64,000 nucleotides of DNA, taken from assembly GCA_963727255.1 (NCBI GenBank), contig CAVSFC010000002.1, positions 330,412 through 394,411 on the forward strand, read 5' to 3'. A model generated the notes under the pieces. The model saw only the letters and a list, made by a program, of their open reading frames with translations, did not search any database and was not told the DNA's origin. Positions 964 through 62,899 of the stretch are shown here, piece after piece. Both the position numbers and the translations under genes were made by a program. Numbering within the stretch: position 1 is the first letter of the stretch; every line of letters starts with the position of its first letter. The DNA is from an uncultured bacterium. GTDB lineage: Bacteria > Babelota > Babeliae > Babelales > Vermiphilaceae.

Positions 964-1065
964 CTTTTTGTTGCGCTTGAAATTGCGCTTTGAATGATAG
1001 GCTTTTAAGGGGTTTTGCTGGCTAAGCGCCTTTCATGGCGATACTATTGGATGTTGCGCAATGAG

Positions 1066-1108
1066 TTATCCACCACTTATCCACCACTTATCCACCAAGT
1101 TATCCACC
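1066..1108 (+). repeat. Array of four DnaA-box-like 9-mers spaced 11-12 bp apart (right arm)
   Basis: ttatccaccacttatccaccacttatccaccaagttatccacc. Confidence 0.75.
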
Positions 1109-1624
1109 AGACACATATGAAATATCAGGATCGGGAAGGCATTTTTCTATTCAGCCAGAATACTTTTCTCCATTGTTGCAGGGGCTTGACGGCGTAGTTT
1201 GTATAATAAGAATCGTCAAAACAATAAAGACGACCAGATTTTGTGTATGTAAAACTGTATTAATTAGCCAAATAAATCAATTGTATTCATACAGGATTTG
1301 ATGAGGAGTGAGCGGTTAAATGCTCGTGCTTAATTTCAGTCTGAAAAATTTAATTGCAAGACTCATTTAAAACAAATTGTTTTTGCTGAATGTCATCATT
1401 CAGAGAGAAATATTTTAATATCTGAGCGGATGTTGCAATTCTTTTTGAATGATTTATTAAAAAGCATAATGCTTCTCTTTTTGTATTGAATCAGAAATGC
1501 AACACGGGTAAATCTGTTGCAAATTAGGGAGCAAGGTCCGCGTATAGCGTGTTGCATTTCTGCTGTAATAACTATCTGATCGGGATAAAGAATCATCTGA
1601 GTTTTAAAAAAATGAAACGTTGCG

Positions 1625-2212
1625 CTAGTTTTGGGCCAATTGGTATGCCTTTGCAATGTCTTCATACAGGGTATTAAGTTCCTTGGGATTTCTTAGAATA
1701 TAGGCTGGATGATAGGTAGGCATAATAATATATTCCGGGAGGTTAGCAGCGACAATCGGTTTGCCTCGAACGGTTGAGATTTTTATGTGATAATCATTGA
1801 GCAATCCTTGAAGCGCGGTAGCCCCTAAGCTGCAAATGATTTTAGGGCGAATGATTTTGATCTGATTAAAGAGCAAAAGATTGGTGCAGGTGAGCACTTC
1901 ATTTTCAAGGGGTTTGCGGTTATTAGGAGGTCTGCATTTTACTACGTTGGTGATGAATACTTGGCTTCTTTCAAGGCCTGCACATTCAAAAATCTTATCG
2001 AGCAACTTGCCCGATCTGCCTACGAATGGTTTTCCTAATCGGTCCTCATCCTGTCCGGGGCCTTCTCCAACAAACATGAGCTTGGCATCGGGGTTGCCTG
2101 ATCCAAATACTACATTGGTTCTTCCCAGTTTGCCTAACGGGCACTGGACGCATTTTATATACGGCGCATACAGTTTATTAAGAAGTTCTTGTTTATATGT
2201 TTTAATATCCAT
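1625..2212 (-). CDS. Uracil-DNA glycosylase, family 4
   Basis: 195-aa ORF. CVQCPLGKLGRTNVVFGSGNPDAKLMFVGEGPGQDEDRLGKPFVGRSGKLL and ITNVVKCRPPNNRKP...HPAYILRNP match the family-4 UDG signature blocks. Confidence 0.85.
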   Translation of the reverse strand: MDIKTYKQELLNKLYAPYIKCVQCPLGKLGRTNVVFGSGNPDAKLMFVGEGPGQDEDRLGKPFVGRSGKLLDKIFECAGLERSQVFITNVVKCRPPNNRKPLENEVLTCTNLLLFNQIKIIRPKIICSLGATALQGLLNDYHIKISTVRGKPIVAANLPEYIIMPTYHPAYILRNPKELNTLYEDIAKAYQLAQN

Positions 2213-2238
2213 CGCGTGAGTTTGCCTTCAAGTGAAAG

Positions 2239-2258
2239 CTCCCGGCAAAAACCGGGAG
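2239..2258 (-). terminator. Weak hairpin downstream of the C11 peptidase gene
   Basis: ctcccgg-caaaaa-ccgggag, 30 nt after the stop at 2288. Only a short T-rich tail follows on the minus strand. Confidence 0.3.
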
Positions 2259-2287
2259 CGAATATTTTAAGACTAGGTTATCGATTC

Positions 2288-3625
2288 TTATCCGTTTAAT
2301 AAATAGGCGGTTAGGAATTTTGTCCAGTTATTTTTTGCAAAGTTAGATTTTTTGTATGAAGGATGAATTTTTCTGTCTGGGAAGAAAATAGAAATTCCCG
2401 ATGCATACGGAAGATTTGAACCGCAGACATTTCTGATGACTACTCTTTTTATGATTCCCATGCCTTCTTGCAGTATTCGTATAATTTCCGAAGCGAGTAG
2501 ATTTGGATTTGGGAAAGTATCCCGTAACGCCTTAGAGAGATTTTTATAAAAATGAAGTAAATCAATATATGTTGGCTCATTAAAGTGAGTGCAGTTTCCT
2601 TTTCTTTTGCTATGAGCAAGTATATTTCTATAAACGCTTGCTTGATCGGTTGATAGTGCGCCCGTTAGTGCATCCCCCAATTGGCTTACATTTGCTTCAA
2701 GCTGATCAATAATAGCAAGATCAAGGGCCGATTGAGTGTAATCAACAAATCCCGGATGATTTCCGCTGGGCTTATATGCGGTTGCAAAGGCATCTACAAT
2801 ATGGGATGCAAGACCATGGGCATCGGGCGCTCCTCTCAGAAATGCCAGCAACGCTTCATCATATCTCCAGCCTGGCCCGGGCTCAACTTCCTGTGAGGCG
2901 ATTTGGATATTTGCAAACTGTTTAGTGATCTCTGCAACTTCGATCATTGCCATCAGGCATGCATCGAAGGCGATAATATCAAATTTTCTTCCGCCCAGAA
3001 TGGTATTCTTGATTTCTGAGAGAGCGGCCTCCAGTTTTTGATTGGTCAAATAATTGCCCGTGGTATCATCCCAGCAAATTCCTTTGGGATCATTAAGCGC
3101 TTCAATCAAATCAAGGAATCCTATAGTTCGATCAAGCTCAAAAACATTAGTATGGGAATTATACGTATAGAGCATTTTCGTATCAATTTGACGCCGGCCA
3201 TACGGATCAATAATTCCGGTGCCATGATTCCAGAGCACGAGCATATAGCGCTCTGCCGGATAATTAGTTATTGCCCAGCGGCACGCAGAAACAAGGGTTG
3301 CCGGGTCGCCGCTATCCATCGGAGTTTTTTCATTGGGAATCTCAACTTGGACCGGATTATTTTTTTCTACATAATAGCGGCGGGTTATTTTTTTGCTTCC
3401 ATGCATACGGATATCCAAATGAACGCAGAGATTTACATACTGATTCGATCCGATAAGCGACATTTGCTTAATATTTCGCGATGCATAATCGCGTAGATTG
3501 TTATCTGCGGCTGCATAGACAATAAATGTCCAGGGTTTTTTTTCTTTTGGATTAGTTGAACCAAATAGCAAAAATATGATGATAAAAAAATGAAAGAAAA
3601 TGCAATCTTTTAGCAAGCGTACCAT
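2288..3625 (-). CDS. Clostripain-like cysteine peptidase (family C11), membrane-anchored or secreted
   Basis: 445-aa ORF with an N-terminal hydrophobic segment. FIVYAAADNNL, LVLWNHGTG (His) and IIAFDACLMA (Cys) fit the C11 His/Cys dyad context. Confidence 0.7.
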   Translation of the reverse strand: MVRLLKDCIFFHFFIIIFLLFGSTNPKEKKPWTFIVYAAADNNLRDYASRNIKQMSLIGSNQYVNLCVHLDIRMHGSKKITRRYYVEKNNPVQVEIPNEKTPMDSGDPATLVSACRWAITNYPAERYMLVLWNHGTGIIDPYGRRQIDTKMLYTYNSHTNVFELDRTIGFLDLIEALNDPKGICWDDTTGNYLTNQKLEAALSEIKNTILGGRKFDIIAFDACLMAMIEVAEITKQFANIQIASQEVEPGPGWRYDEALLAFLRGAPDAHGLASHIVDAFATAYKPSGNHPGFVDYTQSALDLAIIDQLEANVSQLGDALTGALSTDQASVYRNILAHSKRKGNCTHFNEPTYIDLLHFYKNLSKALRDTFPNPNLLASEIIRILQEGMGIIKRVVIRNVCGSNLPYASGISIFFPDRKIHPSYKKSNFAKNNWTKFLTAYLLNG

Positions 3626-3701
3626 AATCCCTACTCCCCTTTAATGGTATATATGCCCTATACCTTAAGGTATTCAAAGTCGGAGGGATGGCACAATATT
3701 T

Positions 3702-4811
3702 TTATGAATAGCCCTGTTTTTTACGCGCTTCTATATGGTTAAACCACGCGAGCGCAAAGGTGAGTCCAAAGCTCAGTTGAAAATCGAGGAAGAATAATTG
3801 CAACGGATTTATGCACAATACTAATGCGGTCACTAAAACAACCAGATGAACATAATGGGAAGGAGATCGCGCTAACAAACACCATTTATAAATGAGGACC
3901 ATTAAGAGCGCACGTTCAAATGAGACACTCGACCAAGAAAGAACTGCATAGGTAAGAATAAGCATAATTAAAAACAGTTGCTTAAATAGGTAGGAAAGTG
4001 GCAGTAAGCTTAAAATAAAATGCCAAACAATCACAAAGATAACCAAATGTAAACCCGAACGGGCAAGATAATGGCTGGTTCCCCAAATCTTAAATGGTTC
4101 TTTCGTTGAATCCATTTGCTTTTTTACCGCAGTACGATTTCCAAGAAATATCGAAGAAAACAATTGGAATGTCTCGCGATTTATTTTAGATCGCAATGTT
4201 GCAAAAAGAGATTCTTTAAAATAAAACAACGAACGCATAAAACTAAAATTGGGCCGTTCTATGAGGGTATATTTTAGATTCTCAAGAAAAAGCGTTGCAG
4301 AAATTTTTTCTTTGGCCAGATAGGTGTTAAAAGAAGAATTCGAACTTTGTTTAAAGGCAACATCATTAATTTCAACGAGATCTCCGACCAAAAGATCGGG
4401 TTTATCTTTTATATACAATGCAATAGTTTCTCCGCATTGATGCCAAGTATCCTGTTTTTGTATTTGATCAGTTTCTATGATCATGCGAAATGAAAAGCGA
4501 GGATTTTGTATTTTTTCAATGCTGGAAATATATCCGTGCAAGGTAATGGCATCCTCTGCAACCAGATTAAGAAAATTCTTTTGAGTTTTTTGTTGCATGT
4601 AACAAAGAATTGATCCTGCAAGGAATGATAGCGCAACAATAGTATAGAGTGGCTTATTGTAGCCCTTGGCCCAACGATAAAAAATACCAAAAATAATAAG
4701 CAGTGCTGCTATACCAAGCTGTACCGAAAGCCAGACTCGCAGAAACTGGCAAGTGATACCCACCATCATGGAAAGCGTTACATGCGATAAATAATGAAGA
4801 CGCGGGAACAT
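3702..4811 (-). CDS. ComEC/Rec2-family membrane protein, short form (DUF4131-like OB region plus part of the competence domain; no metallo-beta-lactamase domain)
   Basis: 369-aa polytopic ORF. FNTYLAKEKISATLF..., FLGNRTAVKKQ..FKIWGTSHYLARSGLHLVIF resemble the ComEC core (..GxxHLLAISGLH..). Confidence 0.6.
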   Translation of the reverse strand: MFPRLHYLSHVTLSMMVGITCQFLRVWLSVQLGIAALLIIFGIFYRWAKGYNKPLYTIVALSFLAGSILCYMQQKTQKNFLNLVAEDAITLHGYISSIEKIQNPRFSFRMIIETDQIQKQDTWHQCGETIALYIKDKPDLLVGDLVEINDVAFKQSSNSSFNTYLAKEKISATLFLENLKYTLIERPNFSFMRSLFYFKESLFATLRSKINRETFQLFSSIFLGNRTAVKKQMDSTKEPFKIWGTSHYLARSGLHLVIFVIVWHFILSLLPLSYLFKQLFLIMLILTYAVLSWSSVSFERALLMVLIYKWCLLARSPSHYVHLVVLVTALVLCINPLQLFFLDFQLSFGLTFALAWFNHIEARKKQGYS

Positions 4812-4877
4812 AAAATGTGAGGTGAAATATTTTAAAATACCTATTGTGATGATGCCCTAGTCAAAGTTGTGAATCTA

Positions 4878-5900
4878 TTATCTATGATTTGCAAGAAGAG
4901 CCTTTACTTCTTGAATAAAAGGCGATTCTCCATTGAGAGATTCCATTCCAAAGACCATATCCAATACAGATGGAGACCTAGCAAAAGGCCGATAGTCTGG
5001 ATTTACACCATTTTTGAGAAATAGTTTTAAAAGATCGATATCTTCCTGTTTTATTGTTTTGCATGTTGCAAATATGGAACAGGGAGTTCCAATCTCAGTT
5101 ATTATGGCATAAGGATTAGCTCCATTTGCAAAGAGCATGTCAGCGATTTCAGTACAATAGGGAATTTTTTTATCCCATATTTGAACCAGGATTTCCAAGG
5201 GAAGCCTTCCCGCCGCATCTTTCTCATGCACCGTTTTAGGTGTCACGAATTTTTTTACTAAGGAAAGATCACAAAGCTCAAGCGCATGGGCAAGAGTTGT
5301 TGCTTTTGTTGCAAATAAAGCGGCAACCTTACTGAGTCCTTTGGTTTGATCTGGAGGCACGGTGCGAGCTACAGTCAAATTGAATGCTGCAGAGTTTTTT
5401 TCTTTTCGCTCCTTAAAAAAAGGATTTGCGCCTTTCGAGAGGAGAAATTCTAATGGTGGCAGATAGTCTTCGCGCATTGCGATACTTGTTGCAAATATTA
5501 TAGCAGAAATATTCTGGCCTGGTTTGCATCGATTTATAAACGCCTTTTTTTGAGTAAGAAATTCTAGAACAGGATTACTTGCTGCTGGGTTTTTTCGTTC
5601 AAAAGCATCGCAAAGAGCAGCTTGTAAGAGTGATGTCCCATTTTTATCCAGAGAATTTGGATCAATGCCTTCTTCATTTATTAGGTGTTGCAAACATATT
5701 AAATTGCTTCTCGATGCAGCAGTAAATGCGAGCGCTTTTAGCTGATTTTCTTCCGGCTCGGGAGTTGAAGTTCTTAAATCTCCGGCATTGATGAGTTTTA
5801 ATTTCATTTCTTTGTGTTTTTGTTCATCAACCATGCAAGAGAGCGAGAGCGTAAAAAGCGCAAATAGTGTTATAAAAATGGATATAGATTTTGTCTTCAT
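4878..5900 (-). CDS. Secreted divergent ankyrin-repeat-like protein
   Basis: 340 aa with a signal-like N-terminus (..TLSLSC|MVDE). Repeated DKNGTSLLQAAL, LLSKGANPF, DAAGRLPLEILV, LFANGANPY, FLKNGVNPDY. Paralogous to 11023-12126 and 12107-13240. Confidence 0.6.
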   Translation of the reverse strand: MKTKSISIFITLFALFTLSLSCMVDEQKHKEMKLKLINAGDLRTSTPEPEENQLKALAFTAASRSNLICLQHLINEEGIDPNSLDKNGTSLLQAALCDAFERKNPAASNPVLEFLTQKKAFINRCKPGQNISAIIFATSIAMREDYLPPLEFLLSKGANPFFKERKEKNSAAFNLTVARTVPPDQTKGLSKVAALFATKATTLAHALELCDLSLVKKFVTPKTVHEKDAAGRLPLEILVQIWDKKIPYCTEIADMLFANGANPYAIITEIGTPCSIFATCKTIKQEDIDLLKLFLKNGVNPDYRPFARSPSVLDMVFGMESLNGESPFIQEVKALLANHR

Positions 5901-5926
5901 AGTGGCTCAACTTAGTATGTTAATTT

Positions 5927-6232
5927 TTATTTTTTAAGAGTTTCTATGCGCTTTATAATATCAGAAACATCAACATTATGCGACTTTTCCAGATTTTTAA
6001 GGCGTTCTATAATCGATTTTCCGCTGGCATCGCTCAGTGTAGCGTTTTCTTTATCAAGAAGTGTATGCAAAAAATCAAAATTTTGATGATCAATTGCGGA
6101 AAAAATTAGATCCCTTATGAGCTCATTGGAATTTTGTCGTGGGCATCCAGGGCTGCTTATATCTCTATGTTCCGATGCATCAAGAGAGCAACTGCAAAAC
6201 AATATTAATACCAGTATCTTTACTATCATTAT
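5927..6232 (-). CDS. Small secreted hypothetical protein (start moved to the internal ATG with an AAGGGGGA RBS)
   Basis: MIVKILVLILFCSCSLDA signal-like N-terminus. The longer ORF to 6349 would overlap the upstream gene. Confidence 0.5.
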   Translation of the reverse strand: MMIVKILVLILFCSCSLDASEHRDISSPGCPRQNSNELIRDLIFSAIDHQNFDFLHTLLDKENATLSDASGKSIIERLKNLEKSHNVDVSDIIKRIETLKK

Positions 6233-6306
6233 CTGTCCCCCTTTTTTATTTAAAGTACAAAAATTGGGAACCAAAACGCAAAGATATTCCACTTTTCTGG
6301 GCTGTA

Positions 6307-7776
6307 TTATGGATTGTTTGAGCTTAAATCTCGGCGGCAGATTGGGCAATTGTTATTATTGCTCTGGCCAAGCTTTTTTAGGCAATCGCCGCAAAAAATA
6401 TGCTTACATTTTGTAACGCTGTCAGCAAAGTTTACAAAGCATACCGGGCAAACTGCATTGATTGTTTCAGGATCAATCTCATACTTAGCGATTAGTTGTT
6501 TTTTATAGGGGATGGGAGCCATTAAGAACTTTTCGAGAAGAAAAGGGTAATCGGTTAACAATTGTTTATCGGCGAATGCACAAATTATACTGAGTATTAA
6601 AGATGGTGGTTCGTTGGAGAGCACCGCAATGATTTTTTTGCAGCTAGCCTTATATACAAATGATTGAGACCCAGCAGCAATAGTATAATTATCGCCGCTT
6701 ATTGCTACCGTAGAAAAATGCTCACCTGGGGCATCGAATTGTGCTAGGCATGATTTATTTGCAAATTCTACTAACTTTACATGCCCATCCCAATGCCCGG
6801 TAACGGCATAATTTCCGCAACTACTTATTGCGGCCGCAATGATAGTCTTTAATTCTTTTGCGGTTTCTCCTTGACAATTTTCAGTCGATACCCGAACGAT
6901 TTCTTGGTTAGTTGCAAGAAGGCCGTATTTGCCATCAGGTGTAATATCAACGGAAACAAAATTTTTACGTTGACATTTAAAATCACTCAAAGTAGGTTTC
7001 TTATCCTTATAGTGAAATTTTTTCAATTTATTTTGATATGCGATCAACCCCCAGCTGCCATCATCGCTCATTGCAAATGCTATAGGAGTTTTTGAACGAT
7101 TAGGGAATGTATTTCTTTCCTTTCCATCACTTTTTACAATTTCTAGCTCCTCATCATAATGATGGAAGAGTGCGAATTTTCCACGAGATGTGAGAAGGAG
7201 CATTTTTACATTTTGTGAAAGTATGTCATTAGAACAAGTTGTGCCGGTATAGTTGTTATATTTACTCAGACAATTTTTTGAAGCTGTTAAAATAAGTCCC
7301 GGTTGATCCAAACATTTTGAGGCTATTACTGTTGACTTCAAGTAATTGATGGCGCAAACCAACCCTTTTTCCGTAAAATATGCCGATGTATTATTAGTTT
7401 TTGTAAGCGACATATGGCTGCCATCATGATCGAGCGATATTGATTGCGCTGGGCAGTTGATATGATAAAGTTGTGCGGAACCTGAATCAAAACTTTCTGA
7501 AATAGAAGTTGGCCCGATTTCTTCTTTTTGAATTTTCTGAACGTTTGCATTAACCAATCCGCTGATTTGATAGAACGTGCCTAGATATCTTTCAAGCAAG
7601 ATCTTGCTAATCTCCTGTTTTTTTTCATGAGAATCAGCACGTTGGCATAATTTTTCTAAATCCTGACCAAGTGGGAGAGCAAGCAATTCTTGTGCCAATG
7701 CTTCGGGAGTTTTGCTAGATTCCATAGCAAAAACTGAAGAACACACAAGAAGCACAATAAAAAAATAAGAAATCAC
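6307..7776 (-). CDS. Secreted WD40-like beta-propeller protein with a C-terminal C3HC4 RING finger (E3 ubiquitin-ligase-like)
   Basis: 489 aa, GTG start, signal ..SSVFA|MESS. Repeats include AMSDDGSWGLIAY, DITPDGKYGLLAT, SSCGNYAVTGHWDGHVKLVEF, AISGDNYTIAAG. C-terminus CPVCFVNFADSVTKCKHIFCGDCLKKLGQSNNNNCPIC = C-X2-C-X10-C-X-H-X2-C-X2-C-X11-C-X2-C. Confidence 0.75.
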   Translation of the reverse strand: MISYFFIVLLVCSSVFAMESSKTPEALAQELLALPLGQDLEKLCQRADSHEKKQEISKILLERYLGTFYQISGLVNANVQKIQKEEIGPTSISESFDSGSAQLYHINCPAQSISLDHDGSHMSLTKTNNTSAYFTEKGLVCAINYLKSTVIASKCLDQPGLILTASKNCLSKYNNYTGTTCSNDILSQNVKMLLLTSRGKFALFHHYDEELEIVKSDGKERNTFPNRSKTPIAFAMSDDGSWGLIAYQNKLKKFHYKDKKPTLSDFKCQRKNFVSVDITPDGKYGLLATNQEIVRVSTENCQGETAKELKTIIAAAISSCGNYAVTGHWDGHVKLVEFANKSCLAQFDAPGEHFSTVAISGDNYTIAAGSQSFVYKASCKKIIAVLSNEPPSLILSIICAFADKQLLTDYPFLLEKFLMAPIPYKKQLIAKYEIDPETINAVCPVCFVNFADSVTKCKHIFCGDCLKKLGQSNNNNCPICRRDLSSNNP

Positions 7777-7901
7777 AATGAGAACCTAATGTTTAAAAAC
7801 TATTTATTAAATCAATACTTTAAGATATAAGAGCATTGTTTGTCAAATAAGCAATGGTGCGGCATACTGATTAAAAATTCTTTTTTAAAATCGGGTTAAA
7901 A

Positions 7902-10535
7902 ATGTCTTCTATACAAAAACACATTCTATCTAATGGTCTTACTGTTTTAGTACATCCCCTACACACAATTCCCAAAGTTGCAGTTCAACTCTGGTATGAG
8001 GTTGGCTCAAAAGATGAAAAAGATGGCGAAAGAGGTTTAGCCCATTTGCTTGAACATATGATTTTCAAGGGCACCGACATTCTTTCTGAATCTGATATCA
8101 ATCTGATTGCGCATAAATTATCAGGAAATTGCAACGCCTTTACTGGCCATGATTATACTGGCTACCTCTTTGATTTTCCTAAGCAAAATTGGAAAATTGC
8201 GCTTCCATTGCTCGCTAACTGCATGCGAAAATGCACCTTCAAAGAAGATCTTTTAAATGCAGAATTAAAAGCGGTTATTCAAGAATTAAAGATGTATAAG
8301 GATGATTATCAAACAAGCTTATGCGAGCAGATGCTCAGTGCGCTTTTTAAAGAACATCCGTATCATTATCCGATTATTGGGTATAAGCAAGATTTATGGG
8401 GCATCAATCAGCAAGGCTTGCTTGCTTTTTATGCAAAGCATTATGTGCCCAATAATGCTACCTTAGTGATTGTTGGTGATATCGATGTGCAAGAAGCGAT
8501 CACTCTTGCTGAGCAAGCATTTAATGCAATACCCGCTGATCCTAATTACCATCGCGATACTTATAAGTATGTGCCCGATATGCGTGCCCATTCGGTGATA
8601 ATCAAACGAGACGTGCAACAACCAATTTTAATGTATGCATGGGTTGTTCCGGGCCTAAAAGCAAAGCAATCGCATATTATTGATGCGGTCCGCTGGATTT
8701 TTGGAGAAGGCAAAGGATCCCGCCTTTTTAAAAAAATTGTGGATGAAAAAGAGTTAGCAACCGATTTGCAGGTTGATTTATACGAGATGTTTGATCAAAG
8801 TGTATTCTTTATTCACATTGATCCGGTAGATGAAACAGTAATTGATACCATCTCTCAAATAATTAAGGATGAACTTGATCTCTTGCACAAAAATGGGGTT
8901 CAGGAGCATGAATTGCAGCGTGCTTGCAAGCAATCATTAATGGAACATTTGAGTCTTTTTGAAAACAATCAAAAGCTTGCCTATGAAATTGGTGCATCAT
9001 TTTTAGCAACCAAGAATGAAAAATCGCTTGAAGAATATCCGGCCTTACAAAAAAAGATTGATAGAAAAACAGTGGATCAGTTTTTTAAGGAGTATCTGCG
9101 CGGATCGATTATGAGCAAAGGAGCGGTGCTCCCGCTCAATGAACGTGAAATGGCCGATTGGCTTGCCTTGCAGGAGCAATCTGATAAAGAAGATGAGCGG
9201 ATTCTCTCGCGTAAAATACGTGAATCTACCGTTGAATGCGGGGTCTATGTTGAGCAGGTTATCGCGCAAGAGGCTGCATCATTTAAATATCCGCGTGCTG
9301 ATAAATCAACATTATCCAATGGGCTCATGCTTGTAACCCATTCAAATAAACAAACTCCAAAAATTGATTTAATGCTCGATCTAAAAGTGCGCCATTTTTA
9401 TGATCCCGAGGATAAGGAGGGGCTCATCAATTTTATGAGTACCATGTTGCTCGAAGGAACCGAGCGCTATACCGATCAAGAGCTTGCCGATGCTGCTGAA
9501 TCGCGAGGCATGGGCATTGATGTACGCGCAGGAATGCTTACAATCAGCACATTAAAAGAAGACTTTGAATTTGCGTTACATTTATTGGACCAATTAGTTA
9601 CTCAGGCAACATTTCCTGAAAAAAGCATAGAAAAAATACGATCCCAAATCGATGCTGATATTGCACAACTCTGGGATAGCCCGACAGAATTCGTTGCTCA
9701 ATTAGCACGAAAAGAATTATATAAGTATCATCCGTATCACAAAAATATTTTGGGCAGTGAAGAATCGATCAAAAAAATAAAACGTTCAGATCTGATCAAC
9801 GCCTATAAAAAATATAGCACCCCCTTGGGAGCACGCTTGGCCATAATCGGAGATCTTGAAGGCATCAATGTTAATGCTGTTGTGCAAAAGATGCTTGGCA
9901 ATTGGCAAGGTGCTTCAGTTCCGGATTTAGAATTTCCACAATTGCCTACAGTAACTAAAAAAGATTTAAACACCTCTATGAATCGTGATCAGACGGTGCT
10001 TTGTTTTGCCGGCCATTCTGTCTCGCGCCTCGATCCAAGATTTGATGCATTATTGCTTTTTGATCAAATTTTTACAGGCGGAGTTTTGGGTTCAATGAGC
10101 TCCTATCTTTTCCAGCTACGGGAACAAACGGGGCTCTTTTATACGATTGGCGGATCATTAGTGGCCGGTGCAGATGAGCAGCCAGGAATGGTTTTTTTGC
10201 GTACGATAGTTTCTAATGATCGCTTGGATGAAGCAGAGCGCTTGATTGAACAAGCAATAATAGAATGCAAAAAGCGTATTAATGATCTGGATATTGAGCA
10301 TGCGCGCAATGCGCTGGTGAATTCACTGGTCGATCATTTTGAATCTAATTATAGTATGGCAGAAGCATTTTTATTTCTTGATCGCTTTGGATTGCCTGCT
10401 GATTATTTTGATAATCGTTTGAAAAATTTAAAATTAATGAGTAATGGGCAGATAAAATCCGCAGTAGAAGAGATTCTTGATCCCAATCGGCTCATCCGAT
10501 TAAGAATAGGCAGATTAGCATTTAAAAATCGATAA
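7902..10535 (+). CDS. M16-family (pitrilysin/PqqL-like) zinc peptidase, two fused M16 units
   Basis: 877-aa intact ORF. Inverzincin motif GLAHLLEHMIFKGT (HxxEH). A second half-repeat begins at ..STLSNGLMLVTHSNKQTPKIDL. Confidence 0.9.
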   Translation: MSSIQKHILSNGLTVLVHPLHTIPKVAVQLWYEVGSKDEKDGERGLAHLLEHMIFKGTDILSESDINLIAHKLSGNCNAFTGHDYTGYLFDFPKQNWKIALPLLANCMRKCTFKEDLLNAELKAVIQELKMYKDDYQTSLCEQMLSALFKEHPYHYPIIGYKQDLWGINQQGLLAFYAKHYVPNNATLVIVGDIDVQEAITLAEQAFNAIPADPNYHRDTYKYVPDMRAHSVIIKRDVQQPILMYAWVVPGLKAKQSHIIDAVRWIFGEGKGSRLFKKIVDEKELATDLQVDLYEMFDQSVFFIHIDPVDETVIDTISQIIKDELDLLHKNGVQEHELQRACKQSLMEHLSLFENNQKLAYEIGASFLATKNEKSLEEYPALQKKIDRKTVDQFFKEYLRGSIMSKGAVLPLNEREMADWLALQEQSDKEDERILSRKIRESTVECGVYVEQVIAQEAASFKYPRADKSTLSNGLMLVTHSNKQTPKIDLMLDLKVRHFYDPEDKEGLINFMSTMLLEGTERYTDQELADAAESRGMGIDVRAGMLTISTLKEDFEFALHLLDQLVTQATFPEKSIEKIRSQIDADIAQLWDSPTEFVAQLARKELYKYHPYHKNILGSEESIKKIKRSDLINAYKKYSTPLGARLAIIGDLEGINVNAVVQKMLGNWQGASVPDLEFPQLPTVTKKDLNTSMNRDQTVLCFAGHSVSRLDPRFDALLLFDQIFTGGVLGSMSSYLFQLREQTGLFYTIGGSLVAGADEQPGMVFLRTIVSNDRLDEAERLIEQAIIECKKRINDLDIEHARNALVNSLVDHFESNYSMAEAFLFLDRFGLPADYFDNRLKNLKLMSNGQIKSAVEEILDPNRLIRLRIGRLAFKNR

Positions 10536-10555
10536 GTTAAAAAAAGGAGATTTCG

Positions 10556-10981
10556 ATGATAAACAGTCTAAGATTTTTGAAAATTTTTGGACTCGCCTAT
10601 CCATTTTTTATTTGCATGGATATTATTTGGATCGGTTTTATAATGAATGGCATTTATAAAGAAAAATTGTCAGCCATTGCTCGCATGAGCAACGGCGCAA
10701 TAAGGCCGAATATACCTGCATCATTACTAGTCTGGTTGCTTATTGTAGGAGGCTCGTTAGTTTTTGTTTTACCGCAGATAGAAAGTGCTCCTTTGATTCG
10801 GCAATTTATGTGGGGTGCATTCTACGGATTGATCCTTTATGGCGTATACGATTTAACCAACTTTGCCATTCTTTCATCGTGGCTGCTTTCTATTACCATG
10901 CTCGATTTGGCGTGGGGTATGTTTGCAAATGGCATTTTGGCTATTGCGCTTGTTTTTTTGAGCAAATTGATTCAGCACTAA
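10556..10981 (+). CDS. Small integral membrane protein (DUF2177-like, 4 TM)
   Basis: 141 aa with four hydrophobic helices. GGAG-type RBS 7 nt upstream. Lies 20 nt after the M16 stop, so probably co-transcribed. Confidence 0.55.
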   Translation: MINSLRFLKIFGLAYPFFICMDIIWIGFIMNGIYKEKLSAIARMSNGAIRPNIPASLLVWLLIVGGSLVFVLPQIESAPLIRQFMWGAFYGLILYGVYDLTNFAILSSWLLSITMLDLAWGMFANGILAIALVFLSKLIQH

Positions 10982-11022
10982 AAGCCAACGCGGATAATAA
11001 ACAATATACTTTATTTTTTCTC

Positions 11023-12126
11023 TTATAGAGTTTGAGTTTTTGTGTCTGTTTTTTTACGTGCAGAGTGTTTATTAAATAGTTTTACAACTTTTTGAGCAGG
11101 CTCTTTTTTGAGTTCATCCAGACATCCAAGACATTTGTCATCATCTTCAGGTGTAAAGCAAGTGCATTCATTTTTTTTGGTATAATATTTGATTGCGCGT
11201 TTTGCTGGAGTCTCAGAAAGATCATTTTCAGGGTCTGGGTTAAGCAGATGATTAGCTTTGTTTGCTAAAAATAGCTGAACAATATCAGTATCATTATTCT
11301 CTATTGCATAATCGATAGCGCAGAGCAGAGGCAAACATTTTCTATCCTTTAGAATTCCTATCTGATTAGCATTTGCCTGATTTTTAAAAAGAAGTTTTAA
11401 AATTTCGATGGTTTCTTGTTTAAGGTGCGGATAGCAGTTGCTGGTAACGCGGATTAAGGGTGTAATTCCTGTGTTATCGGGCACATTTACTAGTTCAGGC
11501 TTCAGAAATTTCTCAATCGTAGCAATATCATGAGTTTCCATTGCTTCATGAAGATTTTTTGCACGTTCACAAAAACGCTTTAAGACAAGCATTCGATTTT
11601 TCTGTTGTTCAGCTAGCAAATCTCTTGTGGAAACTGCAAAATTAGCAGCTGTCCCCCCAGTTGGAGTTTGACAATCTAAAAATGGATTGCCATTTTTTTC
11701 CAAAAGGTATTCAAGTGGACCAAAATTGCTATTGTAAATTGCTTCACCAATCGTATATAGCAATGCTGAACCATGTGCAAACGGTGCAAGTTTATCTATT
11801 TTTGCCCCTTTAGATAGTAAATAATCCGGTACCGATCTATCAAAATCCGATTTCCAGGCCAACTTTTCAAGTGCATGTGAGAGTAAATTCCTTCCACAAT
11901 AAACTGTGTTCACATTTTGTTCATTTACATATTCTTTTAATGTATTCAGGTCACATTCTTGTGCAGCTTGAATAATTTTTTCTCTCTGCAAATTAAGTGG
12001 TGATAAGATACTTTGCAAATCTGCATCGGGGCCAAGGTGGATTACGGTAACATTTTTTTCCATGCTGTTAGCAGAAAAGGAAATTAATAAAAATAAAAGG
12101 GGAAGGCTAAATTGAGTGATCTTCAT
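11023..12126 (-). CDS. Secreted divergent ankyrin-repeat-like protein
   Basis: 367 aa, signal ..SFSANS|MEKN. LLSKGAKIDK, LLEKNGNPFLD, DNTGITPLIRV, LFKNQANANQ, FLANKANHLLNP. Confidence 0.6.
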   Translation of the reverse strand: MKITQFSLPLLFLLISFSANSMEKNVTVIHLGPDADLQSILSPLNLQREKIIQAAQECDLNTLKEYVNEQNVNTVYCGRNLLSHALEKLAWKSDFDRSVPDYLLSKGAKIDKLAPFAHGSALLYTIGEAIYNSNFGPLEYLLEKNGNPFLDCQTPTGGTAANFAVSTRDLLAEQQKNRMLVLKRFCERAKNLHEAMETHDIATIEKFLKPELVNVPDNTGITPLIRVTSNCYPHLKQETIEILKLLFKNQANANQIGILKDRKCLPLLCAIDYAIENNDTDIVQLFLANKANHLLNPDPENDLSETPAKRAIKYYTKKNECTCFTPEDDDKCLGCLDELKKEPAQKVVKLFNKHSARKKTDTKTQTL

Positions 12127-13240
12127 AGATTCCTTTAAAAGGGTCGAATATTTCGGTTTGCGTATATTTCTGAAAAAGATCTAGAATATCATGAGCGGTA
12201 GATGCATTTTTTTTAATTTGCACTAGTTCTTTTTCTTTTTTTAAATCTTCTTCGGTCAAATTTGCAGCTCTATACGCAAGCTCATATGCGGTTGGGCCAA
12301 ATTGAGGCGCCAGAGAATATTTGGGATCTCCTCCATGCTCGAGTAGAGGAGGAATCATGCCGGAATCCCCTTGCTGAATCGATACAATAGTAGCGAAGGC
12401 AATTATAGTTTGATAGGGATATGCCATATTCGCTATACCTGCATTCGGCTTGGCCCCTTTTGCTAATAATTTTTTTATTATTTCTATTGTTGCGATTTTA
12501 TTTGATAGATCGAATCTGGAAACTGCCCTGAAAAGGGGAGTTTTTGCATCTTCATCCTTCTCATCATTTGCTATAGAATTTGCAAACTCCTCAACTTTTT
12601 CAACGTCGCAAGCAAGAACAGCCTGCCGCAATGAGGTAATTTTGCTTTTAAAGAATTTAAGTACCTCATTTGCTTGGGGGTATATTTTGGGGTAGTTCGA
12701 AAAGTGTGAAACTGTATCGAAGAGGCTTGGTTTATTTACTGATGCAATAAAAGGATCTGCGCCCTGAGAAATAAAAAAATCAAGTGCACGGAAATTGTGT
12801 GTTTTGCTTTTTGCTGAAAGTAATGCAGCATACTCAAAAGCAGTCATTGCTTGGCCTGGTTCGGTTATATAAAGATAAGCTCCATTATCTAAAAGAAAGT
12901 TGAGCGTTTTTTCTATTGGGGCATTTGTATCTTTAAAACTTCTTCGCAATGTAGCGAATATGATTGGCTCTGCTTTACTGTTTATTTGATTAATATTTGC
13001 TCTATTAACCAGCTTTTTTAATTTTTCGATATTGCAAGCAAACGCTGCCCGGGAGGCCTCTTTGAAGCGCAAATCTTCCAAATGATTTGACATATAATAA
13101 GTGTTTTGAAGATCTTCCTCGAATTCTTTAAAATTGCCGGTACTGGTAGTTCTTGACAAGCGTATAATATAATTAGGTTTTTCCATTGAAGTTATATCTG
13201 AAAAATAGAGTAAAATTAGGGGAATAAAAACAAAGATCAT
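12107..13240 (-). CDS. Secreted divergent ankyrin-repeat-like protein (start set at the ATG at 13240; the ORF-track start at 13285 is TTG)
   Basis: Signal MIFVFIPLILLYFSDITS|MEKP. LLDNGAYLYI, FISQGADPF, DEDAKTPLFRAV, LLAKGAKPNA, LLEHGGDPKY. Overlaps the next paralogue by 20 nt. Confidence 0.6.
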   Translation of the reverse strand: MIFVFIPLILLYFSDITSMEKPNYIIRLSRTTSTGNFKEFEEDLQNTYYMSNHLEDLRFKEASRAAFACNIEKLKKLVNRANINQINSKAEPIIFATLRRSFKDTNAPIEKTLNFLLDNGAYLYITEPGQAMTAFEYAALLSAKSKTHNFRALDFFISQGADPFIASVNKPSLFDTVSHFSNYPKIYPQANEVLKFFKSKITSLRQAVLACDVEKVEEFANSIANDEKDEDAKTPLFRAVSRFDLSNKIATIEIIKKLLAKGAKPNAGIANMAYPYQTIIAFATIVSIQQGDSGMIPPLLEHGGDPKYSLAPQFGPTAYELAYRAANLTEEDLKKEKELVQIKKNASTAHDILDLFQKYTQTEIFDPFKGIYEDHSI

Positions 13241-13323
13241 TAAAAACCCTCTAAAAATGAATTCTAAATATAGTAGACTAATCAATGATTAAAAAATTGT
13301 TGAGTATAATCAAGAGGTTTTCA

Positions 13324-16136
13324 ATGAATAATTGTATACTAAGAATAGCAAAAAATCAGCTAGTAATTATTTTTGGGTTAACATGCTTTAGCTTGACTGC
13401 ATTTACCGATATGAAAATTGAATCACCATCGCAAGATTTAATTATAAATAATCAGGAATATATGAATAGTATCCCCGAACAAAACCATCAGCCACATGTA
13501 TATAAAAGAGTGCTTGAAAATGGAATGACTATATTGGTCCGCGTAGTCCACACATTGCCCAAAGTTTCACTGCAAATTTGGTATAATGTTGGATCGAAAG
13601 ATGAAAAAACGAATGAAAAAGGAATTGCGCATCTGATTGAACATATGATCTTTAAGGGAACTAAGCTCCTCTCCGAATCCGATATTAATGTGATTACGCA
13701 TATGCTTTCAGGATCTACCAATGCATTTACTTCATATGATTATACCGGGCTATTTATTTAATATGCCGGTGCAAAATTGGCATCAAACATTAGGCCATAT
13801 TAGCTGATTGCATGCAGAATGTTACCTTTAAGGATGATCATTTAATTCTGAAATGAAAGCGGTAATTCAAGAATTAAAAATGTATCGCGATAATTATCCG
13901 CGACAGCTTAATTATGGAGTTGATGGCAGCATTATTCCCTGATCATCCATACCATTATCCGGTAATTGGGTTTAAGCAAGATCTGTTTGATGTGCATGCA
14001 GATCGATTGCGCGCATTTTATAAAAAACATTATTGGCCAAATAATGCAACATTGGTAATTGTTGGAGATGTTGATCCTGAAGATGCATTTGCTCAGGCAA
14101 AAAAATATTTTGAAAAAATTCCTGCAAATAAAAATTATAAAAAAGAACAATTTTATTTTAATAAAGATATTGTTTCTCATTCGGTAACTCTCTATCGTGA
14201 TGTACAAGCAGCCGTTTGCCGTGATTGGATATATGATTCCGGGAGCACAAACAAAGAATGAACATTTGCTTGATGTAGTTGCACTGATCCTGGGAGCGGA
14301 AAAGGATCGCGGTTATACCGAAAATTGGTTGATGAATTGCAGATGGTGACTGATTTGGGCGCTTATCCGTGGCTTCTTCTTTGAGCATGGGATTTTCTTT
14401 ATTATGTTTGAGCCAAAAAATGTTGCAGATATTCCGCAAATTCAGGAAATAATTCAAAAAGAGATCGATGAAATTATAAAAAATGGGCTTACCGATCAAG
14501 AATATACTCGTGCGCTTAAGCAAGCATTGCATGCAATTATTATAATTTGCTTGAAAGCATAGAAGCTCAAGCGCGTGAAATTGGAAAAGCCTATTTGGCA
14601 ACCGGCGATGAAAATTTTGCATTTCATTTCTTAGATAAACCAAAAAAAGAAGTAGAAACAGAGATAAAAAAACTCTTGGCAAATTATTTTAAACCATCAT
14701 TGATGAATATCGGTATTATTGTTGCCACTTTCTGAAGAAGATAAAAAAGAATGGGCAGCGATGCAAAAAAAATCTGATGAATATGATGCTAAATTTCTTG
14801 GCAGCACGGCCACGCACAACGCCGATTGAACCGCCATCATATGCAAAAAAAATTAAAGGTAAAAGAGGCGACTCATTTTGATTTTCCAAAATATAAAACC
14901 ATGATGCTCAATAATGGAATCAAGGTGCTTTACTATGATAATCCCAATACGCCAAAAATAGATTTAATTTTAGAATTTAAGGCACGAAATTATTATGATA
15001 GCGAAGCGTTGCCGGGCATTTATAATTTTGTTTCAACAATGTTGCTAGAAGGAACAAAAAAATATACTGCCACGCAATTGGTTGATGAACTTGAGATGCG
15101 CGGCATGTAATGTAAGTGTTTCTCCGGGCGTTATCGTTATGAGTATGCTTGCGGCTGATTTTGAGAAAGGGCTTGAGCTTCTTAGAAGAGATTATTGCAC
15201 AATCCACGATTTGATGAGAAAGAAATTGAAAAAGTTCGCGAGCAACTTCTTGCGGAAATAAAACATTTTTGGGATGATCCGCAGCAGCTTTTCAAATCAA
15301 TTGGTAGAAGAATATATCTATAAAGGTCATCCGTATTGCCAAAAATATTTTAGGCACGGAAGAGTCTATTAAAAAAATAACAAAAAAAGATCTGATAGAG
15401 TTTCATAAGAAATATTTTAGCCCGCGATGGAGCGCGCTTGGCAATTGTTGGTGATATTGGTTCTTATGATTTAAAAAATATTTTAGAAAAGACTATTGGA
15501 TCCATTGAAAGGGCCAGAAGGTTGAAGCGATTGAATTTCCCTGAATTGCAGCCAGTAAAGCCATGTGAAAAGATTCATCCGATTAATCGTGATCAAGCGG
15601 TGTTATGTTTTGCAGGGCTTTCTGTTGAACGTAAAAATCCTGATTTTGATAAATTTTTTATTTGATCAGATCTTTGGCGGCGGAGCACTTGGTTCATTGC
15701 ATTCGAAGTTATATCAATTGCGTGAGCAATCAGGCTTATTTTATACTATAAGCGGATCATTGATTTCAGGTGCAAATGAACAGCCGGGCATGGTGATTGT
15801 GAAAACAATTGTCTCGCTTGATCGTCTTGCATGAAGCAGAAAAAGCTATAAAAGATGTTATTGATAAAGCGGTTAATGAAATTATCTGATGAAGAATTTT
15901 TAGAAGCAAAACATGCGATTATAAATTCAATTGTGAATAATTTTGCAACCAATCAGGCATGGCTCAGGTTTTCTTAAGTCTTGATCGATATGGATTTCCA
16001 CCTGATTATTATGATACTCGAGCAGAAAAAATTTCTGGCTATTACACTTGATCAAATGAAAGAGGCAGTTAAAAAAGTGTTGCGCAATGAATCGATGTTT
16101 ACGCTTAAAGTGGGCAGATTGGAAGAGAAGAAATAG
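13324..16136 (+). pseudogene. Second M16-family peptidase (paralogue of 7902-10535) broken by >10 single-base indels
   Basis: Fragments in all three frames align colinearly with the intact copy. Examples: ..LENGMTILVRVVHTLPKVSLQIWYNVGSKDEKTNEKGIAHLIEHMIFKGTKLLSESDINVITHMLSGSTNAFTSYDYTG.., ..MKAVIQELKMYRDNYP.., ..FPDHPYHYPVIGFKQDLF..HYWPNNATLVIVGDVD.., ..GIKVLYYDNPNTPKIDLILEFKARNYYD.., ..FGGGALGSLHSKLYQLREQSGLFYTISGSLISGANEQPGMV.., ending ..FTLKVGRLEEKK*. The N-terminus carries a signal/anchor that the intact copy lacks. Confidence 0.8.
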
Positions 16137-16152
16137 ACGAAATAGTCTATAA

Positions 16153-17055
16153 TCATTGTTTAATGGGGCCGAGATTGACAAAATAACTGCTGCTCTTTTT
16201 GTAGGAGATAAAGTCCGAATTGTTTTCCAATCCCATTTTTTCAAGTGCGCGGCGGAATACCAGAAACAAAAAGTTCTTTAATAGATACAAGAAATTAAGA
16301 ACGGTTGCTTTATGATCGCAGTAATATTTTCGCATATAGATGCAATTCAAAGCGATCAAAAAAATTGCTCCACCACATAGTATTGTTTCACAAAATAGTT
16401 AGGATGGCGCGAATAGCGCCAAAGGCCTGAGGTCAATAATTTTTCCCTGTATTAAGAGGATATTTAAGAAATGAATAGAGTTGCCAATCGGCAATCGATT
16501 CAAATAAAAACCCGATTCCCCAAAGCAAGAGGCCGAGCAAATCAAGACTATTAAGCCGTGGCTGGGCATCCGAGGCATTAATCATGAACGAGTGGGATAG
16601 GCGATAATCAAACATCGGCAACAGGTTTGCGCGAGAAAAATATAGAAAATAGCTATAAACCAAATACTTATATTTCTTTAAGGCCACATAGTTTGAGTGC
16701 ATGCAGGGCTAAGATTCCACTGTTGTAACCATAGCGAGGATAGCTTCCGTTTTAGCACAATTTTTCGATGATATCTTTGATTATTTGTTCGTTGAAAGCC
16801 GCAATCCCCAGAAGATAACCAAGACATGTTCCCAGTGGCTTTCGAGGATGATATCCGAGGCTTGTAACAAAAAGTAGTGATCCAAGATTTTACCAATGAG
16901 ATAATACAAAACGCCAAGGCCCCCGCAAATCAAGGATATCCCATTTACAATGCTTGTATCATTATTACTAAATATGATTCGACAATAAAATTGCGCTTAT
17001 CATTGTAGATTACCATACACAAAGAGCAGATATTGCTATTGAAACTCAAAAGCAT
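16153..17055 (-). pseudogene. DUF1295 / steroid-5-alpha-reductase-like membrane protein, frameshifted several times
   Basis: ATG at 17055 with an AAAGGAG RBS. Frames read ..VLVIFWGLRLS.., ..LLGLLLWGIGFLFESIADWQLYSF.., ..GLWRYSRHPNYF.., ..LEKKMGLENNSDFISYKKSSSYF.. . These are the typical DUF1295 blocks in their usual order. Confidence 0.65.
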
Positions 17056-17095
17056 ATTGATTCTCCTTTAATAATTGTTAACATACTACGATAAA

Positions 17096-17914
17096 ATGCA
17101 GCCACCTTCAATCAACGATTTTAAAAAAATCATTTGGAACTATTATACAACGCAAGGCCGCCTGTTTGATTGGCGTCATGTTGATGATCCATATAAGGTA
17201 TTCATCTCAGAAGTAATGCTTCAGCAAACACAAACGGTTCGTGTTGCGCAAAAATATCCCCTTTTTATTGAAGCGTTTCCTGATTTTAAAATACTTGCAG
17301 ATGCTCCATTAAAAGAGGTGCTCCTGCAATGGCAAGGACTCGGTTATAATCGGCGTGGCATGTATTTGCAACGCGCTGCGCAAACCATTATTCAAGAGCA
17401 TGCTGGTATTCTTCCCAATGATCCGGAAGTTTTGATAAAACTGCCCGGGATTGGAAAAGCGACCGCTGCATCAATTTGCGCATTTGCTTTTAACTCGCCG
17501 ACCATTTTTATTGAAACCAATATTCGGGCTGTTTTTATTCATTTCTTTTTTGCAAATAAAGATTCAGTTCATGATCAGGAAATTATGCCACTGCTGGAAG
17601 AGAGTTTGGATAAGGAGCATTCAAGAGATTGGTATTATGCTTTGATGGATTATGGGGTAATGTTAAAAAAGACTCTGGTGAATCCAAGTAGAAAAAGCAA
17701 ACATCACGCTAAGCAATCTAAATTCGAAGGGTCTGATAGGCAAATTAGGGGCATGATTCTGAGAATTTTAACTCAGCAACAGGCCCCAATTTTATCGGAA
17801 GTTCTTATTGCGCTCACCAAAAAAGATTCCGTGCGTGTTTCAAAAATTATAGATCAGATGGTTAAAGATAAGCTAGTTTTAGTTACTGGCCCTCTAATAG
17901 AGCTAGGTATTTGA
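17096..17914 (+). CDS. HhH-GPD base-excision DNA glycosylase (MutY/EndoIII-like), with no visible Fe-S cluster cysteines
   Basis: VFISEVMLQQTQTVRVAQKYPLFIEAFPDF..LLQWQGLGYNRRGMYLQRAA..LIKLPGIGKATAASICAFAF. No C-X6-C-X2-C-X5-C motif downstream. ATG at 17096 preferred over the TTG at 17075. Confidence 0.75.
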   Translation: MQPPSINDFKKIIWNYYTTQGRLFDWRHVDDPYKVFISEVMLQQTQTVRVAQKYPLFIEAFPDFKILADAPLKEVLLQWQGLGYNRRGMYLQRAAQTIIQEHAGILPNDPEVLIKLPGIGKATAASICAFAFNSPTIFIETNIRAVFIHFFFANKDSVHDQEIMPLLEESLDKEHSRDWYYALMDYGVMLKKTLVNPSRKSKHHAKQSKFEGSDRQIRGMILRILTQQQAPILSEVLIALTKKDSVRVSKIIDQMVKDKLVLVTGPLIELGI

Positions 17915-62888: not shown

Positions 62889-62899
62889 TTGGGTATGCT

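Follow-up and report, generated by a model that had tools for sequence, protein, structure and literature searches.

Bacterial mimicry of ubiquitin ligases is well known, mostly in the form of U-box, HECT-like, NEL and F-box proteins delivered through injection systems, and the characterisation of bacterial zinc-type RING E3 ligases is only beginning. Published work describes the Dependentiae (TM6) as obligate intracellular parasites of amoebae and other protists. In Babela massiliensis, a member of this phylum, a 'RING finger domain protein' was named as a potential E3 ligase, and WD40, F-box and secreted deubiquitinase-like proteins were reported as well (PMC4378268). Most ankyrin proteins of B. 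massiliensis carry signal peptides, and type II is the sole secretion system detected there (PMC4378268); in Chromulinavorax, signal peptides were found on 44% of the coding sequences (CDS) and on 78% of the ankyrin proteins. Outside this phylum, activity as a RING E3 ligase, with UbcH5b, was demonstrated in 2025 for SneRING (SNE_A12920) of the amoeba-infecting chlamydia Simkania negevensis (PMC12591485). Here we describe a gene in a 64-kb stretch of a Babeliales contig (GenBank assembly GCA_963727255.1, contig CAVSFC010000002.1, positions 330,412 to 394,411 of the forward strand; referred to as the window, in which all coordinates are given unless a locus is named). It encodes a predicted WD40-type beta-propeller followed by a C-terminal RING-HC finger, and we call it the RING-propeller gene. 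Its product is probably a Sec-exported, effector-type RING E3 ligase that would ubiquitinate a host protein by means of its propeller and a host E2~ubiquitin conjugate (E2~Ub). The features of the gene are given below (aa, amino acid residues; AF2, AlphaFold2).

6307..7776, minus strand: RING-propeller gene, 489 aa, with leader, helical domain, seven-bladed WD40-type propeller, helical linker and C-terminal RING-HC finger
6334..6336, minus strand: Arg481, directly after the last zinc ligand, aligned with the Arg of CPTCRKK in RNF4
6337..6450, minus strand: RING-HC finger, aa 443-480, with ligands C443, C446, C457, H459, C462, C465, C477 and C480
6484..6639, minus strand: helical linker, aa 380-431, five helices joining propeller to RING in the AF2 model
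6643..7500, minus strand: seven-bladed WD40-type beta-propeller, aa 93-378 (about 286 aa), 28 strands and a closing strand in the AF2 model
7534..7707, minus strand: N-terminal helical domain, aa 24-81, four to five helices in the AF2 model
7723..7725, minus strand: Met18 at the junction of leader and mature protein, invariant in 13 of 13 sequences (alignment A1), followed by Glu or Asp in most members
7726..7776, minus strand: hydrophobic, signal-peptide-like leader, aa 1-17 (MISYFFIVLLVCSSVFA), ending in V-F-A
7784..7788, minus strand: Shine-Dalgarno-like AGG(T), 7-8 nt 5' of the GTG start
7817..7846, minus strand: promoter-like TTGACA-18-TAAAGT (10 of 12 positions), from a consensus scan, within the 125-bp divergent spacer shared with an M16 peptidase gene

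An exhaustive HMMER search over 1.84 billion representative proteins yielded about a dozen full-length relatives and three fragments; the relatives measure 448-530 aa, are 22-30% identical and share the same layout. In a word-indexed homology search, the whole protein matched itself only and the family alignment recovered just P0001 and P0048, and a scan of a genome collection with the RING-propeller protein gave no relative. No full-length eukaryote-like relative was present among the top matches. Members of the family are named 'hypothetical protein' or 'WD40 repeat protein' in the databases, and a literature search returned no paper on a family with this order of leader, helical domain, WD40 propeller, helical segment and RING. 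The family appears to be undescribed.

The identity of aa 443-480 as a RING-HC finger is secure. The residues read CPVC-X10-C-K-H-IF-C-GD-C-X11-CPIC and lie within the last 47 residues of the protein (CPVCFVNFADSVTKCKHIFCGDCLKKLGQSNNNNCPICRRDLSSNNP); with the regular expression C-X2-C-X9-39-C-X1-3-H-X2-3-C-X2-C-X4-48-C-X2-C they gave the sole RING-HC pattern match in the six frames of the window. The initial annotation, made from the DNA letters and their open reading frames (ORFs), had described a C-terminal C3HC4 finger of this spacing and had proposed profile searches and an AlphaFold model as checks, and its finger was borne out by the regular expression, by five Pfam models and by matches to PDB sequences. 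The Pfam model zf-C3HC4 (PF00097) scored 34.3 bits at a cut-off of 21 (E = 2e-8), and the curated cut-offs were likewise exceeded by zf-C3HC4_2 (33.3 bits, cut-off 27), zf-C3HC4_3 (31.8, cut-off 27), zf-RING_2 (31.4, cut-off 27.3) and zf-RING_UBOX (29.6, cut-off 25.2). RING models were matched by 12 of the 13 family members. Scores below the cut-off were obtained with Prok-RING_4 of Pfam (21.6 bits, cut-off 27) and with RING_SCO0854 of NCBIfam (NF041916; 12.6 bits, cut-off 600). A phmmer search of PDB sequences matched RING2, TRIM21 and RNF4 through their RINGs (E 6e-8 to 6e-7), and the family profile matched RNF4 (E 2e-21), RNF8 (E 6e-14) and RING2, the match to RNF8 taking in the helix before its RING.

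The structural check pointed the same way. AF2 was run twice, on the full protein with the family alignment (predicted local distance difference test, pLDDT, 84.3; predicted TM-score, pTM, 0.81) and separately on aa 380-489 (pLDDT 80), and the full-length model placed the RING at aa 441-485. When the C-terminal model was compared with PDB using Foldseek, all 50 of the 50 best matches were RING domains. The closest superpositions on solved RING E3 domains (c-Cbl, RNF20/RNF40, RNF168, TRAF6 and MEX-3C) had a root-mean-square deviation of 1.2-2.0 Å over 42-49 columns. A RING fold is predicted from the superposition on solved RINGs, and a cross-brace with two zinc sites is presumed, in a model in which AF2 places no metal.

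Across the 12 intact family members, the eight zinc ligands are invariant at an overall identity of 22-30%, as are P478 of the final CPxC and R481. Arg481 occupies what we take to be the 'linchpin' position of active RING E3 ligases; in RNF4 and BIRC7, the linchpin Arg locks E2~Ub in the reactive closed state. The predicted E2-contact positions are V445, L469 and P478-I479. The central-helix position, L469 here and Trp in half of the family, is presumably the equivalent of c-Cbl Trp408. V445, for which most relatives have Ile, stands just ahead of the second Cys, and a hydrophobic residue at this place is a conserved E2 contact of RING domains (PMC12591485). Conservation of these RING residues is the pattern expected where purifying selection maintains a ligase, but it does not amount to proof, and the activity itself is predicted.

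Two observations concern the C-terminus in the relatives. P0003 (ENA, 448 aa) keeps the leader, the propeller and the linker and has lost all RING ligands at its C-terminus, and is either a decayed copy or the product of an assembly frameshift. A C-terminal Pro stands a few residues past the RING in 9 of the 12 intact members (…SSNNP, …LNTP, …SAQP, …HQKP; 6310-6312 in the window), and its conservation suggests that the tail may have a function.

For the region before the RING, comparison of the predicted propeller with PDB using Foldseek returned WDR5, G-beta and the bacterial WD40 domain 5yzv, with a TM-score normalised to the target (TMt) of 0.63-0.78 and E of about 1e-17. The matches outside the family in the exhaustive HMMER search (phmmer) were canonical WD40 proteins with 10-18 repeats (E down to 9e-33). 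Searched with the Pfam WD40 repeat PF00400, as the initial annotation had proposed, the protein alone stayed below the cut-off (23.6 bits against 27, for one repeat at aa 312-335), whereas six of the 13 family members matched at E <= 1e-3, the best at 2.5e-8. Despite the sub-threshold Pfam score, the HMMER matches and the predicted fold together make the assignment to a WD40-type propeller secure. About 400 residues of WD40-like blades had been claimed; the blades stood, as a predicted seven-bladed propeller, but their length did not, being about 286 aa. The blade sequence quoted in support, TGHWDGHVKLVEF, is present at aa 326-338. By analogy, the propeller is presumed to be the substrate-binding module.

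The N-terminal helical domain was modelled with pLDDT values of 85-94 over aa 21-70 and of about 59 over aa 71-90, and had no Pfam match. With the family profile, the helical linker aligns weakly with the helix ahead of the RNF8 RING. We considered a transmembrane helix in this linker, such as RNF43- and RNF13-type ligases possess, and rejected it: the only hydrophobic stretch measures about 11 residues and is amphipathic in the relatives.

The ORF list begins the gene at a GTG codon, and the first 17 residues from this start form the leader, with mean Kyte-Doolittle values of up to 2.8. AF2 modelled aa 1-19 as a hydrophobic helix at low confidence. An equivalent leader was found in most family members, with Lys or Arg near the start in 7 of 11 leaders of relatives, and in clusters whose representatives start at the internal Met or later, the longer members P0156, P0158 and P0159 show the leader upstream. 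Some relatives have Pro at position -1 ('SIP|M' in P0156, 'IFP|M' in P0158), which makes a poor signal-peptidase site. The duplex with the anti-Shine-Dalgarno sequence was calculated at -3.6 kcal/mol before the GTG start of the RING-propeller gene and at -1.6 kcal/mol before its internal ATG. Among 18 leader-type ORFs of the window, this pairing averaged -4.9 kcal/mol at the upstream starts and -0.05 kcal/mol at the junction ATGs, compared with -2.6 kcal/mol at random internal ATGs. Because Shine-Dalgarno pairing precedes the upstream starts and not the junction ATGs, these calculations indicate that the leader is translated. Its hydrophobic stretch and V-F-A end make it look like a signal peptide, though it contains no basic residue. 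For the promoter-like site upstream, a promoter role is suggestive, the count of such sites in the region being no higher than the shuffled expectation.

The carrier of the gene is a Babeliales (Dependentiae/TM6) bacterium, obligately intracellular and host-dependent. The gene is surrounded by bacterial housekeeping genes, which encode two M16 peptidases, ComEC, a C11 peptidase and UDG, with NusA and IF2 further out on the contig from ENA. For the M16 peptidase next to the gene, identity is 83% and 76% with its counterparts in two metagenome-assembled genomes (MAGs) and 38-51% with those in MAGs that carry the label Candidatus Babeliales or Dependentiae. With 35-44% GC, the window is AT-rich, and it is crowded with ankyrin-repeat ORFs, which fits the published picture of the Dependentiae. 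Within it, the RING-propeller gene lies in a slot that varies among related loci (designated by L numbers).

4812..7901, no strand: variable slot between ComEC and the M16 peptidase, 3.1 kb, holding the RING-propeller gene and the two ORFs that follow, all on the minus strand
5927-6229, minus strand: signal-bearing ORF of 100 aa without family match, directly downstream of the RING-propeller gene
4878-5900, minus strand: signal-bearing, ankyrin-like ORF of 340 aa (Ank_4, E 5e-10)

The slot is empty (about 76 bp) in the two closest genomes, L006 (9941-10016) and L004. In L017 (6001-7593) it holds P0021, a relative of the RING-propeller protein that is 26% identical to it, whereas the neighbouring M16, ComEC, C11 and UDG proteins of L017 are 57-76% identical to those of the window. 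The slot is occupied by unrelated signal-bearing ORFs in L008 (8751-9935) and L011 (4217-5026). Since the relative in the slot has diverged so much further than its neighbours and the two closest genomes lack the gene, its evolution appears effector-like; fast divergence, presence or absence, and a variable slot are, as a sequence pattern, typical of host-interaction genes. A recent foreign insertion was also considered and rejected: the GC content is ordinary and a relative sits in the same slot of the more distant genome L017. The ankyrin-like ORF of the slot is itself about 28% identical, over about 250-260 aligned positions, to two ankyrin-like ORFs on the far side of the M16 gene.

In the mechanism that we propose, the N-terminal leader would take the protein through Sec, and a type II system or vesicles would release it. 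In the host cytosol, the RING-HC finger would dock host E2~Ub via V445, L469 and P478-I479, and Arg481 would keep the conjugate closed and reactive. The propeller, buttressed by the two helical segments, would hold a host protein (or another effector) for ubiquitin transfer. We infer all of these steps: that the leader is cleaved and the protein exported and delivered to the host, that it uses an E2 and acts as a ligase, and that it has a target. For cleavage and export, we rely on the signal peptides published for most Babela ankyrins and for 44% of the Chromulinavorax CDS. Several points weigh against a secreted ligase. The initial annotation had given the protein a bacterial Sec signal, of which the translated hydrophobic leader with its V-F-A end stands, but this leader has no basic n-region. 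A zinc finger with 7 Cys, together with 13 further Cys, must cross the periplasm unoxidised. The conserved propeller positions in the family alignment are mostly structural Gly and Asp, with no conserved substrate-binding site evident, and we know of no route by which a protein of the Dependentiae passes from the bacterial surface into the host cytosol.

The leader without basic n-region, like the Pro at -1 in P0156 and P0158, would also suit an envelope or surface protein, whose leader would direct it to the periplasm or stay on uncleaved as a signal-anchor and whose remainder would be a structural or ligand-binding module with no ubiquitin link; beta-propellers are common as periplasmic modules. 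We regard such a protein as unlikely: eukaryote-type E3 RING models fit better than those for prokaryotic RINGs, the periplasm is a poor place for a zinc site rich in Cys, the residues for E2 activation have been kept with no bacterial E2 nearby, and the two closest genomes do without the gene. Neither the RING fold nor the E2-contact residues demand catalysis, and both would be sufficient for an exported non-catalytic decoy or scaffold, whose RING would bind or redirect a host E2 or RING partner and whose propeller would tether the complex. The Arg after the last Cys, however, serves activation of E2~Ub and not mere binding, and it is invariant at 22-30% identity; moreover, P0003, with its decayed C-terminus, lost the entire RING and kept no partial one, and a decoy therefore strikes us as quite improbable.

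A cytoplasmic protein acting in a bacterial process, for example ubiquitin-like conjugation or defence, would result if translation began at Met18, which is invariant and at which gene callers began several relatives; the T-rich leader upstream, read by eye, is open in all three frames. This reading deserves very little credit, given the Shine-Dalgarno pairing at the upstream starts and its lack at the junction ATGs when set against random internal ATGs, and given the basic n-region that opens 7 of 11 leaders. In addition, no E1, E2, ubiquitin-like or JAB gene adjoins the RING-propeller gene here or its relatives in L013, L015 and L017. That both domains are typical of eukaryotes raised a further explanation, namely that a eukaryotic gene had entered a bacterial contig by mis-assembly or as contamination; this is practically refuted. 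The protein is 99.6-99.8% identical across three independent assemblies (ENA, JGI and Logan); in those of ENA and JGI, the gene is flanked by the same bacterial neighbours, the Logan copy being on a short contig, and around the gene the DNA of the window and that of the ENA contig are 100% identical. The gene is an intron-free ORF of ordinary GC content without a compositional break. The examined full-length relatives P0048, P0007 and P0021 are on bacterial contigs of 459 kb to 1.6 Mb, and relatives adjoin MreB, KsgA, the TLC ATP/ADP translocase or ComEC. An exported RING E3 ligase remains the reading that we prefer.

The leader junction of the RING-propeller protein is shared with other proteins of the window. 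At least 18 ORFs carry a Phe/Leu-rich leader and, immediately behind it, a Met that usually precedes Glu, Asp or Gln (for example ...SVFA|MESS, ...SANS|MEKN and ...LQG|MEKKQ). Carriers include the RING protein, ankyrin proteins, a C2HC-like ORF, the propeller-like ORF at 61686-62888 and several ORFans, and they lie at the following positions.

4878-5900, 6307-7776, 11023-12126, 12107-13285, 17883-18419, 19144-19848 and 29171-30580: ORFs with a leader|Met junction
30588-31085, 37952-41534, 45461-46342, 50399-51831, 53788-55090 and 61686-62888: further ORFs with a leader|Met junction

The strict pattern [ASGCTP]-M-[EDQN] within residues 12-40 was identified in 15 of the 50 window ORFs, against 1.8 expected (P of about 1e-9). 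We also found the motif in the Babeliales loci L004, L006, L009, L013, L015 and L017; it was not found in loci L008 and L010-L012, nor in the housekeeping ORFs and the signal-bearing C11 peptidase of the window. Among candidate envelope proteins, most of which have no Pfam annotation, the C11 peptidase is the one example lacking the junction Met. Two other accounts of the junction were rejected, namely an alternative start at its Met, as no Shine-Dalgarno pairing precedes the junction ATGs, and a shared DNA 'leader cassette', as four leaders compared by eye had no obvious nucleotide similarity. The junction may reflect a rule, peculiar to this lineage, by which effectors are cleaved or sorted; should it prove a genuine signal for sorting or processing, the effector repertoire of these genomes could be listed by a simple sequence rule.

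A broader and rather doubtful possibility is that the Babeliales have a large effector set with a dedicated export or processing code (leader, small residue, then Met and an acidic or amide residue), to which a zinc RING E3 ligase delivered by Sec and type II would belong; the bacterial E3 effectors known to us depend on type III or type IV systems for their injection. Cleaved effectors would then start with Met-Glu or Met-Asp, like fresh eukaryotic cytosolic proteins, and the junction could mark cargo for release past the periplasm or shield it from host N-terminal degradation signals.

Elsewhere in the window, the initial annotation had joined F-box-like ankyrin proteins and an ORF with C2HC fingers to the RING protein as a sign of investment in host ubiquitin manipulation. 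These ORFs and two more with propeller-like matches are as follows.

37952-41534, minus strand: run of four signal-bearing ORFs, three with ankyrin repeats and one (40863-41534) without family match
54653-55090, minus strand: signal-bearing ORF of 145 aa with two copies of C-X2-C-X11-H-X4-C
61686-62888 and 62900-63940, minus strand: two propeller-like ORFs with weak THOC3-type matches (E 6e-7 and 5e-5)

In the run at 37952-41534, we detected ankyrin repeats only, and no F-box or PRANC domain appeared there even at E <= 10. For the 145-aa ORF, zf-C2HC_2 scored 23.8 bits, below its cut-off of 27. With no F-box and only a sub-threshold C2HC match, the window therefore has one clear ubiquitin-related gene and not a cluster of them. 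Paralogy of the RING-propeller protein with the ORFs at 61686-63940 was rejected (BLASTP E > 0.5). Positions 1-1000 and about 13700-18000 of the window are 84-96% identical to the ENA contig (L001), with many indels, and positions 1001-13000 are 99.3-100% identical to it. The second M16 peptidase (13285-16133) is split over several frames in the window and is an intact 944-aa ORF in L001. The divergent stretches look like the result of a low-quality or mosaic source assembly, not biology.

The Dependentiae have few cultured members, and published accounts give them only Sec and type II secretion. The family described here would add a compact, fully canonical example of a bacterial RING E3 ligase, combining a presumed substrate-binding propeller with a RING that has every catalytic hallmark. 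It raises two directly testable questions: which host proteins receive ubiquitin, and by what route a zinc finger exported through Sec would arrive in the host cytosol.

Compared with eukaryotic proteins, the RING-propeller protein has the same two modules as COP1/RFWD2, TRAF7, RFWD3, PRP19 and WDSUB1, and presumably the same logic, in which the propeller binds the substrate and the RING or U-box binds the E2. COP1, TRAF7, RFWD3 and PRP19 carry the RING or U-box towards the N-terminus and the WD40 domain towards the C-terminus, usually with a coiled coil in between, whereas the order is reversed here and the intervening elements differ; the architecture is in this respect not that of these four ligases, although the initial annotation had called it that of a eukaryotic E3 ligase. 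COP1 was matched by phmmer through the RING alone (aa 426-481). WDSUB1 does have the WD40 domain first, but with a SAM domain and with a U-box instead of a RING. There was no evidence of orthology with any of these five proteins and no full-length homology to COP1, TRAF7, RFWD3 or PRP19. Given the reversed order and the lack of full-length homology, the protein is therefore not a member of the eukaryotic RING-WD40 families.

Among agents of amoebae, the giant viruses encode BTB/POZ and WD40 proteins (Mimivirus R739 and R786) that have a similar length of about 490 aa and combine a propeller with a module linked to host E3 ligases, and the propeller matched giant-virus BTB-WD40 proteins in Foldseek at E of about 1e-11. 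These differ in having an N-terminal BTB domain, an adaptor for Cullin-3, and not a C-terminal RING, and they need no export signal. Legionella LubX, GobX and RavN, NleG of enterohaemorrhagic Escherichia coli and AvrPtoB of Pseudomonas follow the same proposed logic of recruiting host E2~Ub and binding a target through another domain. They do so with zinc-free U-box or cryptic RING-like folds and enter the host through type III or type IV injection, whereas the protein described here has a zinc-type RING-HC finger and a Sec-type leader and comes from a lineage in which only type II secretion has been reported.

The closest likeness in the same phylum is with the proteins of B. massiliensis, for which the same idea of signal-bearing, eukaryote-like proteins tampering with host ubiquitin has been put forward. 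The Babela RING protein is covered by one sentence, which gives no architecture, and it is compared here by description only (PMC4378268); as that paper already names it as a potential E3 ligase, the general idea is not new. SneRING resembles the RING-propeller protein in being a eukaryote-type RING of an obligate intracellular bacterium that also infects amoebae, and its activity with host UbcH5-type E2s is the one that we propose here. It is a 25-kDa protein with an N-terminal RING, in which His and Asn replace Cys and His and a Ser stands at the E2-contact position, followed by an alpha/beta domain (PMC12591485). The protein described here differs in its canonical C-terminal C3HC4 finger, its hydrophobic contact residue, the Arg at the linchpin position, the WD40 propeller and the Sec-type leader, and belongs to another phylum. 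The view that canonical RINGs are rare in bacteria holds in so far as they are uncommon, but it must make room for the Babela RING protein (PMC4378268) and the active Simkania ligase (PMC12591485). We see in the RING-propeller protein a new family and architecture within a known effector class, with a plausible functional reading.

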